Source: Cyanobacteria bacterium CYA (lineage in GTDB: Bacteria; Planctomycetota; Phycisphaerae; Phycisphaerales; UBA1924). From it: a stretch of 64,000 nucleotides of DNA. The notes beneath the pieces are model-generated. The model searched no databases. It was not told the origin of the DNA and worked only from the letters and a program-made list of their open reading frames with translations. Made by a program: the position numbers and the translations under genes. Location: contig RHKP01000007.1 of assembly GCA_008363215.1 (NCBI GenBank), positions 113,713 through 177,712 of the forward strand, in the 5' to 3' direction. Shown here one piece after another: positions 1 through 34,085 of this stretch (position 1 is its first letter; every line of letters starts with the position of its first letter).

Positions 1-66
1 CTTGATCTGGTCGCGGTTCTTGAGCAGCCCGGCCACTGCCCCCATCATCTTCAGTTGATCGAACAA
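1..66 (-). CDS. ybaB: YbaB/EbfC-family nucleoid-associated protein, N-terminal fragment running off the window
   Basis: Minus-strand reading from TTG at 66-64 gives MFDQLKMMGAVAGLLKNRDQIK, a typical YbaB/EbfC N-terminus. It starts 1 nt after the dnaX-tau stop (70-68), which is the conserved dnaX-ybaB order. Confidence 0.6.
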   Translation of the reverse strand, partial: MFDQLKMMGAVAGLLKNRDQIK

Positions 67-67
67 C

Positions 68-598
68 TCATCCTCGCTTTCCTCGCGGCTGGACGCTCTT
101 GGGCGTCGCACCGAACAAACTCGCCACTTCCTTGACCAGCGGATGCTCCAACTCCGCGTCGGTGCTCGTGCGCAGCACGGGAGCCTGCGACTGGGACTCC
201 GCGGCCTCGCCGTCATCGGCCAGTCGCAGTGACGGGCCGCGGATACCCAGCGCCCGTTCGAACACCGGTCGCAGTTCGTTCAGATGAGCCTCAACCATGG
301 CGCGCTGCGAGGGGTCGGCATGCAACTCAAACTCGTCGCTTCCGACCTGCTCAACGCGCACCCGCGCAAGCATCGTCCGCAGCCGCGGCCCGCAGACCGA
401 GGCGAGTTGCTCGACCAGACTCATCGCCCCCGCACAAGGGGTGCCCTCCGCGTCATGCGGCGCAGGAACGGCCGGCCCGTCGGGCTCAGGAGGAGGGCGC
501 CGCAGCGCAGACGCGGCGGCCGAAGGACGCACACGGGGCACTACGGGCTCTTCAAGGGGCGGAGCCGACGTACTCCGGTCCGCCCCTAGCGTTTTTTT
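68..598 (-). CDS. dnaX: dnaX tau-specific C-terminal region, readable only in the -1 frame from the A7 run
   Basis: I translated the -1 frame by hand from 598 down to 541 (KKTLGADRSTSAPPLKSPV) and found it open. It joins the 68..541 ORF. That ORF ends ...EHPLVKEVASLFGATPKSV, which resembles the conserved DnaX C-terminus (PLV..a...FgG). Confidence 0.75.
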   Translation of the reverse strand, partial: KKTLGADRSTSAPPLEEPVVPRVRPSAAASALRRPPPEPDGPAVPAPHDAEGTPCAGAMSLVEQLASVCGPRLRTMLARVRVEQVGSDEFELHADPSQRAMVEAHLNELRPVFERALGIRGPSLRLADDGEAAESQSQAPVLRTSTDAELEHPLVKEVASLFGATPKSVQPRGKRG

Positions 599-610
599 GC
601 CGGTGCCTCC
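556..610 (-). promoter_or_regulatory. Candidate programmed -1 ribosomal frameshift / transcriptional slippage cassette in dnaX
   Basis: On the mRNA strand the order is GGAGG (606-610), 7 nt, A AAA AAA (598-592), then CGC TAG. A hairpin GGGGCGGACCG-loop-CGGCTCCGCCCC (586-556) begins about 5 nt after the slippery run. Confidence 0.6.
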
Positions 611-1722
611 GGACCTCGCGGCGAGCCGGCCGCCAGCGCCGCCGCGTCGGCAAACGTTTCCGACAGCGCCAGTCGCACCAGGGCCGCCTCCACCAGCGCC
701 TTCGGGGCCGCCGACGTGCGAAGCATCCGCTGCACGGCGTCGCAGATCGCGATCATGTGCACAATCGCCCCGGCGTCAAACTTTTTCGCCCGCTCGGCTT
801 CTTCCCGGCGCATCTCCCCGGTCAGTTCGACCAGATCGGTCTTCGGTCCGCAGGCCGACAGCACCATCAGGTCGCGCAGGCGCTCAGTCAGCGACTCGAG
901 GAACAGGTCAGGCCCCGAGCCGCGCCCGAGCAGTTCATCGCCCGCCTGGAGCACACCGGGCACGTCCCCGACTGCAATCGCGTCGATCAGCGAGCCCATC
1001 AACTTGCGATCGGGCAGTCCAAGCAGGTCTTCGAGCAGCGCGAGCGTGAGTTTCTTCTCTCCCGCAGCGATCACCCGATCCAGCAGGCTCAGCGCGTCGC
1101 GCATCGAGCCGTTGCCCAGACGCGCGATCTCATGCACCAGTTCGGGCTCGGCCTTGAGACCCTCCTGCCCAACCACGGCCGAGAGATGCTCGGCGATCTT
1201 GGCGACGGGGATGTTGCGAAAGTCAAAACGCTGACAACGGCTCTGGATGGTGGCCGGCACCTTGTGCGCTTCGGTCGTGCACAGCACGAACTTGACGTGC
1301 TCGGGCGGCTCTTCCATGGTCTTGAGCAGCGCGTTGAACGCAGCGGTGGAGAGCATGTGCACTTCGTCGATGATGTAGACCTTGTAAGGCCCGCGCATGG
1401 GCAGGTAGTTGGCATTGGCGATCAGTTCGCGGGCGTGATCGACCCCGGTGTTGCTGGCTGCGTCGATCTCGATCACGTCGGTGTCCTGCCCGCTCATGAT
1501 CGCCTTGGCGATCTCCGGGTGGTCGTCCGCGTGGTTGAGCGCCTTGGCGAATATCCGCGCGATGGAGGTCTTGCCCACCCCGCGCGTCCCGCAGAACAGG
1601 TAGGCGTGGGCCACGCGGTCCTGCTCAATGGCCGCCCGCAGGGTGCGCGCAATGGCCTCCTGCCCGACGACCTGGTCAAAACTGGTGGAGCGGTATCGAC
1701 GTGCCAGAACGGTGTAGGCCAT
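586..1722 (-). CDS. dnaX: DNA polymerase III subunit gamma/tau, zero-frame product (gamma-like, 378 aa)
   Basis: The N-terminus MAYTVLARRYRSTSFDQVVGQEAI...CGTRGVGKTSIARIFAKALN has the Walker A motif. YIIDEVHML is the Walker B/DEXX motif and the TIQSRCQRFDF sensor is present. The ORF ends ...PAKKR-TAG directly after an A7 run. Confidence 0.95.
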   Translation of the reverse strand: MAYTVLARRYRSTSFDQVVGQEAIARTLRAAIEQDRVAHAYLFCGTRGVGKTSIARIFAKALNHADDHPEIAKAIMSGQDTDVIEIDAASNTGVDHARELIANANYLPMRGPYKVYIIDEVHMLSTAAFNALLKTMEEPPEHVKFVLCTTEAHKVPATIQSRCQRFDFRNIPVAKIAEHLSAVVGQEGLKAEPELVHEIARLGNGSMRDALSLLDRVIAAGEKKLTLALLEDLLGLPDRKLMGSLIDAIAVGDVPGVLQAGDELLGRGSGPDLFLESLTERLRDLMVLSACGPKTDLVELTGEMRREEAERAKKFDAGAIVHMIAICDAVQRMLRTSAAPKALVEAALVRLALSETFADAAALAAGSPRGPEAPAKKR

Positions 1723-1751: not shown

Positions 1752-2285
1752 TCAGCCCCCCAGTTCCAATTCGATGGACTCCCCGTCATCCTCCGTTTCG
1801 GCCTCTTCGCTCCCGGATTCGATCTTGGTCTGGTTCAGGGCACTCACGCCCGTCCCGTTGACCGCGTTGTAAAGGGCGACGTTGGCCCCAGCGGTGCCCA
1901 GGTTGGCCACGCGGGCACGCACCTGCCCGTTGTCCCGGTTGTACCAGTAGGCGGCCTTGCCCGCGCCCGTCACCTTGATCGTCGGCTCGGTGACGTCCGC
2001 CCCGGCGTTGACAGACTGAATACCCCTGGGAGAGGTCCCGTCGTACGGGTTCGGCGGTATTCGCCCCCCCATGAACCAGTTGGGGTCGATCGTGCCCGGC
2101 CACGAGCCCTCCAGCCCTTGGTACTCGATCACCCGTTCCTGCATGGCACGCACCGACGACGCGGCGGCCTGCACCTTGGACCCGGCGGCAAACCCGCTCA
2201 GTCGCGGTATGGCGATCGCCGCAATGACCCCGACGATCACCACGACCACGACCAGTTCAAGCAGACTGAACGCGCTTGCCTTCAT
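1752..2285 (-). CDS. Prepilin-type N-terminal cleavage/methylation domain protein (type IV pilin / T2SS pseudopilin-like)
   Basis: Internal ATG at 2285 gives MKASAFSLLELVVVVVIVGVIAAIAIP, the class III signal with F at +1 and E at +5. The upstream 35 codons of the track ORF look non-coding. Confidence 0.85.
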   Translation of the reverse strand: MKASAFSLLELVVVVVIVGVIAAIAIPRLSGFAAGSKVQAAASSVRAMQERVIEYQGLEGSWPGTIDPNWFMGGRIPPNPYDGTSPRGIQSVNAGADVTEPTIKVTGAGKAAYWYNRDNGQVRARVANLGTAGANVALYNAVNGTGVSALNQTKIESGSEEAETEDDGESIELELGG

Positions 2286-2710
2286 CGCAACCCAATGAGA
2301 ACATCGGAATTCCGCGTCCGCCGCTGCACGCACCGCGCCGGGCGCATCGCCCGCACAGGCGTCGCAGTCGGCGCACGCGTCACAGACCACACCCGCACCA
2401 CGCTCGCCCGATCCGCAGCCACAGCAGAAGCCGCTCGCGGCTCAAGGCCTTGAACAGCGCGTGCGAGTGGAAGACGGCCTCGTCAAATCCGATTTGTCGG
2501 TGCTTGAATCACGCCCGGCAGGGAGGTACCCCACACCGGCGCCGTGGAACTGCGAACAAACACTCCGGCCGCGGACGGCGTGGAACAGGGCGGGAACGGT
2601 CGATGGTGCCGGGCGCCGCAGGGCGGTAGGCTGTGGGGAAGCCACAAAGAGGCGGACACGGAAGAGCGGTATTCTACAGCACGCGAGGGAGCATCAGCAA
2701 AGGAGCGGAC

Positions 2711-33894: not shown

Positions 33895-34085
33895 GGCGGT
33901 GCTCCTGTCGGGGGGAGCAGCGCGAGGGTAGCCGCATGTGAGGCGAGCAGAAGGGCAAATCGGCGGAGGGGCGCGTTTGTGCGCGCGCGGGCGCGTGATT
34001 GGACAAAAAAAGCACGCGCCCGTTTCGGGGCGCGTGCGTGCAATCACCCAACCAAATTCATCTGACCAGCGATGCCTTCACCCGA

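Follow-up and report, generated by a model that had tools for sequence, protein, structure and literature searches.

A probable programmed −1 ribosomal frameshift with swapped products in the dnaX gene of Phycisphaerales

Organization of the dnaX 3′ end

The stretch of DNA analysed here (64,000 nt, hereafter the window) belongs to a Phycisphaerales (Planctomycetota) genome of 3.57 Mb, which is available as a 44-contig draft assembly and is 95% complete. The dnaX gene is located close to the beginning of the window on the minus strand. Its mRNA strand reads, in order, GGAGG-CACCGGC-A_AAA_AAA-CGC-TAG, followed by a stem-loop. The features of the region are listed below in window coordinates, with the source of each assignment in brackets.

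1..66, minus strand: start of ybaB/ebfC, beginning with TTG at 66 and running off the window (ORF; Pfam YbaB_DNA_bd, 4e-16)
68..592, minus strand: tail in the −1 frame, the putative tau-specific C-terminal region, 174 codons followed by the stop codon TGA at 70..68 (open frame, homology)
555..587, minus strand: 3′ stem-loop of 13 bp, a candidate frameshift stimulator (RNA fold)
586..588, minus strand: zero-frame stop codon TAG, which ends gamma one codon (CGC, 591..589) past the heptamer (sequence)
586..1722, minus strand: zero-frame ORF of dnaX, gamma-length, 378 aa, ending in ...APAKKR (ORF list, Pfam, NCBIfam)
592..598, minus strand: slippery heptamer A_AAA_AAA in the X_XXY_YYZ phase, zero frame GCA AAA AAA (sequence)
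606..610, minus strand: Shine-Dalgarno (SD)-like GGAGG, a candidate 5′ stimulator through anti-SD pairing (sequence)

The GGAGG element and the heptamer are separated by 7 nt (CACCGGC), and the first base of the heptamer occupies codon position 3 of the zero frame. According to the RNA fold, the stem-loop begins 4–5 nt past the A run. Its sequence, from 587 to 555, is (A)GGGGCGGACCGG-AGUACG-UCGG-C-UCCGCCCC(U), with a 6-nt loop (AGUACG) and one bulged C. An earlier note on this DNA had described a GGAGG element 7 nt upstream of an A7 run and a hairpin about 5 nt downstream of it, and the sequence and its folding located all three. Translation from position 598 showed no stop in the −1 frame between the A run and the TGA codon at 70..68; the tail begins with ACG at 592 and ends in ...HPLVKEVASLFGATPKSV... 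Fused at the A run, the two frames encode a protein of 551 aa, and the trans-frame junction of this predicted tau would be contained in the Glu-C peptide APAKKTLGADRSTSAPPLE.

The TTG start of ybaB at 66 lies one base past the tau stop codon, so tightly are the genes packed, and the two genes are possibly translationally coupled. The adjacency of dnaX and ybaB is the usual dnaX neighbourhood. Immediately upstream of dnaX, the ORF list contains a 212-aa reading frame on the minus strand (1752..2390) with a prepilin-like hydrophobic N-terminal segment (FSLLELVVVVVIVGVIAAIAIP). The segment is of the kind seen in type II secretion/type IV pilin-like proteins, to judge by its sequence; such proteins are common in planctomycetes. 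Another A7 run of the window is found at 34005..34011 on the plus strand, among the genome's 20 A/T runs of at least 7.

Products of the two reading frames

The 378-aa zero-frame product comprises DnaX domains I–III, as determined by Pfam matches to DNA_pol3_delta2 (1.7e-36), DNAX_ATPase_lid (1.6e-14) and DNA_pol3_gamma3 (7.1e-11). The models PF13177, PF22608 and PF12169 all scored above their cut-offs, which places the protein in the clamp-loader family. The NCBIfam models agreed: dnaX_nterm (TIGR02397) matched at 2.7e-116 with 388.7 bits (cut-off 250) and NF004046 with 419.2 bits (cut-off 400). The ORF list and the Pfam core domains thus bear out the view that the zero frame stops just past the A run and yields a gamma-like product of 378 aa. 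The fused 551-aa protein aligned in a single stretch to the full-length tau models PRK14965 (residues 1–529) and PRK09111 (2–537), at scores below those models' own whole-protein cut-offs. The tail alone had no Pfam match. The tau C-terminal region becomes contiguous with the clamp-loader core only after a −1 shift.

The tail of the window dnaX shares 57% and 44% identity with the −1 tails of two congeners, and 26–29% identity, over 100–140 aa, with the zero-frame C-termini of relatives in which dnaX is a single ORF. All of the −1 tails inspected end in a common motif, HPLV..a..lF.a.vv. Substitutions relative to the congeners pile up at the third codon position of the −1 frame (71 versus 47 and 36, and 86 versus 54 and 53). 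The translation, the alignment to the tau models and the tail homology support the earlier view that the −1 frame carries a DnaX-like C-terminus, and together with the substitution pattern they indicate that the tail is the coding C-terminal region of tau. In the studied bacteria this region provides the binding sites for the polymerase core and the helicase. The tails of seven relatives (L113–L117 of genus g37, L010 and L016) extend just 67–92 codons past the zero-frame stop; they retain the HPLV..LF C-terminal motif and lack the middle part of the window tau, so that tau would be much shorter in these genomes.

No further dnaX was found in the window genome or in the one-contig genomes of its family. 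Annotated fused tau was absent among the 8000 candidates scored in public protein sets, which contained gamma-length proteins only. For the genus of the window genome, these sets hold only the 376–378-aa product, in one entry under the label "hypothetical protein".

Conservation of the slip motif in related genomes

The dnaX 3′ junctions were taken from 89 genomes of the class; in one genome the junction was cut by the contig end, and run type and polarity were assigned for 75. In 33 related genomes a 7-nt slip motif is followed by a zero-frame stop codon and a tail in the −1 frame (33/33); these reversed 7-nt loci, in which the zero frame encodes gamma and the shifted frame encodes tau, belong to families f1 (29 genomes), f2 (3) and f5 (1). 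Among them are the two remaining genomes of the genus (L002 and L003), each with A7 plus the stop codon, and four one-contig assemblies (G008, G294, G088 and G103). The reversed polarity that the earlier note had read from the window alone is thus common to 33 related genomes.

The X_XXY_YYZ phase was found in all 33 reversed 7-nt loci, a count that, like the other conservation statistics, treats related genomes as independent, their flanks being very divergent. The motif is A_AAA_AAA in 25 loci and G_GGA_AAA in eight. The latter variant is a canonical tandem-slip heptamer with four A's only, occurs in eight genomes of at least four genera (g37, G013, G015 and G253), and is still followed by a tail in the −1 frame. 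It allows perfect tandem −1 re-pairing of tRNA-Gly(UCC) and tRNA-Lys(UUU). The zero-frame stop lies 0–3 nt past the motif in 30 of the 33 loci and 15–18 nt past it in the other three, and the −1 frame runs on for 67–244 codons. Runs of this kind are rare in the window genome, in which just 20 A/T runs of 7 or more occur in 3.57 Mb. Judging from these comparisons, the dnaX recoding signal is genuine and clade-wide.

Candidate stimulatory elements

The 48 nt past the A run of the window fold at −25.6 kcal/mol, compared with a mean of −14.7 kcal/mol at other positions in this locus (rank 1.5%). Folding of an 81-nt segment against shuffled sequences gave a z-score of only −1.27. The latter value is unimpressive because GC-rich shuffles fold well, and positional controls were used instead. 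The fold signal of the window is a compact stem at a fixed position.

Stems were therefore scored by folding each locus separately against within-locus controls, a procedure that measures the presence of a stem and not strict covariation. In the reversed 7-nt loci (n = 33), the mean MFE of the 48 nt past the motif was −25.1 kcal/mol versus −15.1 kcal/mol within the locus, with a median rank of 1.5%, and in 23 loci the downstream fold was in the top 5%. By contrast, the reversed A10 loci of relatives (n = 19) gave −11.9 kcal/mol versus −12.3 kcal/mol for the controls (median rank 49%), and the A9/A10 runs of relatives lack such a downstream stem. A closed stem begins 6–7 nt past the motif in 29/33 reversed 7-nt loci. 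The comparison of orthologous loci for A7 versus A8 and for the hairpin, suggested earlier, has therefore given A7 or G_GGA_AAA in 33 relatives, with this stem onset in most of them. The arms of the stem vary by lineage and complementarity is kept, e.g., GGGCGG/CCGCCC and CGGCGG/CCGCCG, as well as GCCGGAGGC/GCCTCCGGC, CGGAGCGGG/CCCGCTCCG and GGCGAAGCC/GGCTTCGCC. An alignment fold of 18 heptamer-anchored sequences returned no consensus structure, since MAFFT left the sequences ungapped and the loop lengths differ. No match to Rfam RF00382 was obtained between positions 450 and 750 of the window on either strand (E <= 10). Weak Rfam matches to ncS01 (18 bits versus a cut-off of 58) and isrG were discarded, as they were on the wrong strand and far below the cut-offs. 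The possibility that the stem is an intrinsic terminator was also rejected, because no U tract follows it.

Upstream of the motif, GGAG or GAGG was found 6–10 nt away in 19 of the 33 reversed 7-nt loci (spacers of 5–12 nt were scanned), against 8.5% of control positions and one of the 19 A10 loci. The mean energy of the anti-SD duplex at the 7-nt loci was −6.4 against −2.1 kcal/mol. The 16S rRNA of the window genome ends in ...GGATCACCTCCTTTCT and thus carries the canonical anti-SD sequence CCUCC. The most frequent spacer among the relatives is 8 nt; like the 7 nt of the window, it falls short of the 10 nt of E. coli dnaX.

The window genome encodes both tRNA-Lys(CUU) and tRNA-Lys(UUU). The preference of E. 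coli for a heptamer ending in AAG is attributed to its single tRNA-Lys, which pairs weakly with AAG (Tsuchihashi & Brown 1992, as cited in PMC4066793). With a separate cognate tRNA for AAG, a heptamer ending in AAA, and not the ...AAG of E. coli, would be the sensible choice. In E. coli itself, ribosomes shift less readily on A_AAA_AAA than on A_AAA_AAG (Atkins et al. 2016, PMC5009743). For a cluster of IS elements, −1 frameshifting at A_AAA_AAA with stimulation by a stem-loop has been proven (Sharma et al. 2014, PMC4066793).

Long A runs and classical polarity in the class

The 19 reversed A10 loci differ in arrangement: the run lies in phase 1, 2 or 3, the stop codon is found at a distance of 1–31 nt, and 12 loci carry the tail in the −1 frame and seven (family f10) in the +1 frame. 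In these seven genomes (L145–L150 and L152) the A10 run is followed by G TGA and a tau tail of 224–274 codons in the +1 frame, so that tau would need one A lost or two gained. G209, which also belongs to family f10, has its tail in the −1 frame.

A short hairpin that ends 0–3 nt upstream of the run was observed in reversed A10 relatives (L126, L132, L128, L130, L145–L150 and L152; genomes G300, G028, G130, G163, G195, G175, G275, G141, G263, G161 and G287). The 24 nt upstream of A10 had a mean MFE of −8.3 versus −3.9 kcal/mol for the controls, with 12/19 loci ranking at or below 10%; the corresponding values for the 7-nt motifs were −7.2 versus −4.9 kcal/mol and 8/33 loci. In family f10, the hairpin arms show compensatory changes (CTCGC/GCGAG versus CCCGC/GCGGG). 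The hairpin resembles the nascent-RNA stem-loop of a Roseiflexus IS element, which stimulates transcriptional slippage. The idea that it is specific to the loci that require a one-base deletion (f10) was dropped, as similar hairpins occur in A10 loci that need an insertion.

In 23 relatives dnaX is a single full-length ORF, and an A run is present at the homologous place in all of them (23/23). Seven (L120, L121, L123, L026, L125, L142 and L144) carry an in-phase A7 with the stem and the SD-like element; the −1 frame in these classical-polarity loci reaches a stop codon 2–9 codons on, and three of the loci are in the family of the window genome. Their stem folds at −24.8 versus −16.2. A further 15 of the 23 have A9 or A10 without a stem, i.e., the Thermus type. 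As the stem is present in both polarities of the heptamer loci, it tracks the heptamer and not the polarity, and the comparison suggests that one cassette works in both. Both polarities occur within each of the families f1, f2, f4 and f5.

Discussion

The arrangement described above is best explained as programmed −1 frameshifting by the ribosome, like that of E. coli dnaX but with the products swapped, a reading that we consider probable. Ribosomes that stay in frame would read GCA AAA AAA CGC and stop at TAG, producing the 378-aa gamma-like clamp-loader subunit. A fraction of the ribosomes would slip back by one base, with two lysine tRNAs on A_AAA_AAA, and read ACG CUA GGG... and on through the 174 further codons to give the 551-aa tau. 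The GC-rich stem-loop, which would meet the ribosome 4–6 nt past the heptamer, is expected to promote the slip, and GGAGG, 7 nt upstream and paired to the anti-SD sequence of the 16S rRNA, would probably add to the stimulation. The sequences themselves show the anatomy of the site, its clade-wide conservation and the coding character of the −1 tail; the ribosomal shift, its efficiency and the role of the SD-like element are inferred.

The earlier note had left two routes to tau side by side, a −1 ribosomal shift or the addition of one A during transcription, and the comparative data favour the former. In the latter, RNA polymerase would be programmed to add one A at A7, and the A8 transcripts would yield tau by ordinary translation. 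Homopolymeric A runs are the classical substrate of such slippage, an A7 run can support a low level of it with the same protein as the outcome (AKKT...), relatives of the same class clearly use A9/A10 at the homologous site, and Antonov et al. (PMC3711429) argued that even two-ORF dnaX genes with A7–A9 may use it. Efficient cases, however, have been published for runs of 9. The eight relatives with G_GGA_AAA keep the same site and the same −1 tail with just four A's, and the phase is invariant in 40/40 7-nt loci, which slippage would not require. The tail of the 7-nt loci is in the −1 direction only, and the stem at a spacing appropriate for the ribosome, as well as the SD-like element, goes with the 7-nt motifs and is missing at A9/A10. 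On these grounds polymerase slippage as the programmed mechanism is unlikely, and +1A slippage may serve as a minor or alternative route.

The ribosomal reading also has to be weighed against explanations that involve no recoding. An artefact or decay would mean a true A8 misassembled as A7, as the earlier note had considered, or else a recent frameshift pseudogene; in its favour, some sequencing chemistries easily misread homopolymers, and the window comes from a 44-contig draft. The one-base error was refuted by the relatives: the congeners and 30 further genomes share the in-phase 7-nt motif, the stop and the −1 tail, the layout recurs in 33 independently assembled genomes, among them both congeners and the four one-contig assemblies, and it is also seen with G_GGA_AAA, which is not a homopolymer. 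The fixed spacing at which the stop, the stem and the SD-like element are kept further argues against an artefact, and decay is opposed by the fact that dnaX is a single-copy gene and an essential one. Artefact or decay is, in our view, hardly credible. The locus might instead encode two separate proteins, a gamma-only DnaX and an independently initiated small protein, given that a GTG codon (541) is present 17 codons into the −1 frame and that public gene calls give just the 376–378-aa product. The first possible −1 start in the relatives, however, is scattered 0–77 codons past the site, L114 has none, and in L010 and L016 its use would cost about three quarters of the tail. In addition, the fused protein gives one continuous alignment with full-length tau models, the tail is part of the zero frame in the single-ORF relatives, and tau function needs its C-terminal region tethered to the clamp-loader core. 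Two separate products are therefore very improbable.

Reversed, or two-ORF, dnaX genes have been published (Antonov et al. 2013, NAR 41:6514, PMC3711429), and the window dnaX is a member of this class in a phylum for which no report was found: our literature search on dnaX recoding in Planctomycetes returned no paper. The 2013 survey, which included just two Planctomycetes genomes, listed 17 genes, spread over 12 genera, and the species it names are Chlorobi, Bacteroidetes and Verrucomicrobia; twelve of the genes had poly-A runs (nine A10 and one each A9, A8 and A7), and transcriptional realignment was proposed (PMC3711429). Atkins et al. (2016, PMC5009743) restated two-ORF dnaX and mentioned, as unpublished work, Chlorobium phaeobacteroides with A7 and E. 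coli-like stimulators, and Sharma et al. (2014, PMC4066793) noted dnaX cases with the longer product as the shifted one. The window locus resembles the genes of Antonov and colleagues in that the zero frame ends right past a slip-prone A run and gives gamma, so that tau needs a −1 shift, and in that the layout is kept across genera and is unannotated in databases. It differs from most of them, which have A9–A10, in the strict in-phase A7 heptamer with an SD-like element and a stem-loop, and in its clade, Phycisphaerales. An in-phase heptamer with these two elements points to ribosomal frameshifting.

With E. coli dnaX the window locus shares the gene, the position of the site at the end of domain III, the −1 direction, a stop codon one codon past the site and a signal laid out in three parts, of which the SD-like element is a candidate part here. 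The E. coli signal consists of A_AAA_AAG, an SD element 10 nt upstream and a stem-loop 6 nt downstream (RF00382). Unlike in E. coli, the stop here interrupts the zero frame, so that the longer protein is the one made by shifting, and the heptamer ends in A instead of G, a separate tRNA-Lys(CUU) is encoded, the SD-like spacer is 7 nt and RF00382 is not matched. Thermus thermophilus, according to accounts in PMC5009743 and PMC3711429 of the work of Larsen et al. (2000), makes use of transcriptional slippage on an A9 run in dnaX. There, too, the one gene yields tau and gamma by way of an A run in this position, and the A9/A10 relatives are of this type. As described in those accounts, the Thermus gene has A9, encodes tau in the zero frame and lacks ribosomal stimulators, in contrast to the A7, the stem, the SD-like element and the zero-frame gamma of the window.

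Taken across the class, dnaX of Phycisphaerae may be a natural switch-point, where the gamma/tau boundary carries a single conserved recoding site with four inter-convertible states; we would give this wider reading even chances. Under it, the ribosomal states would consist of a heptamer with a 3′ stem and have either tau or gamma as the shifted product, and the slippage states, likewise of both polarities, would consist of an A9/A10 run that slips in either direction and in many cases has a hairpin immediately before it. The presence of both polarities in f1, f2, f4 and f5 would then reflect repeated single-base flips, which in turn would imply efficiencies of about 50% in both states. The comparative series is in support of the published idea that a one-base change swaps which dnaX product is the shifted one, and G_GGA_AAA would be a dnaX shift site unreported before.

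The joint occurrence of heptamer and A10 runs, with and without a stem and in both polarities, provides an unusually clean sequence-only test of ribosomal versus transcriptional recoding, and a series of four states in a single class makes a useful natural experiment. In practice, annotators of Phycisphaerales genomes should treat dnaX as a single gene with ribosomal slippage. Tau connects the clamp loader with the polymerase cores and the helicase. If the proposed frameshift is true, this essential replication protein would depend wholly, in the clade studied here, on a recoding event that annotation pipelines have missed.
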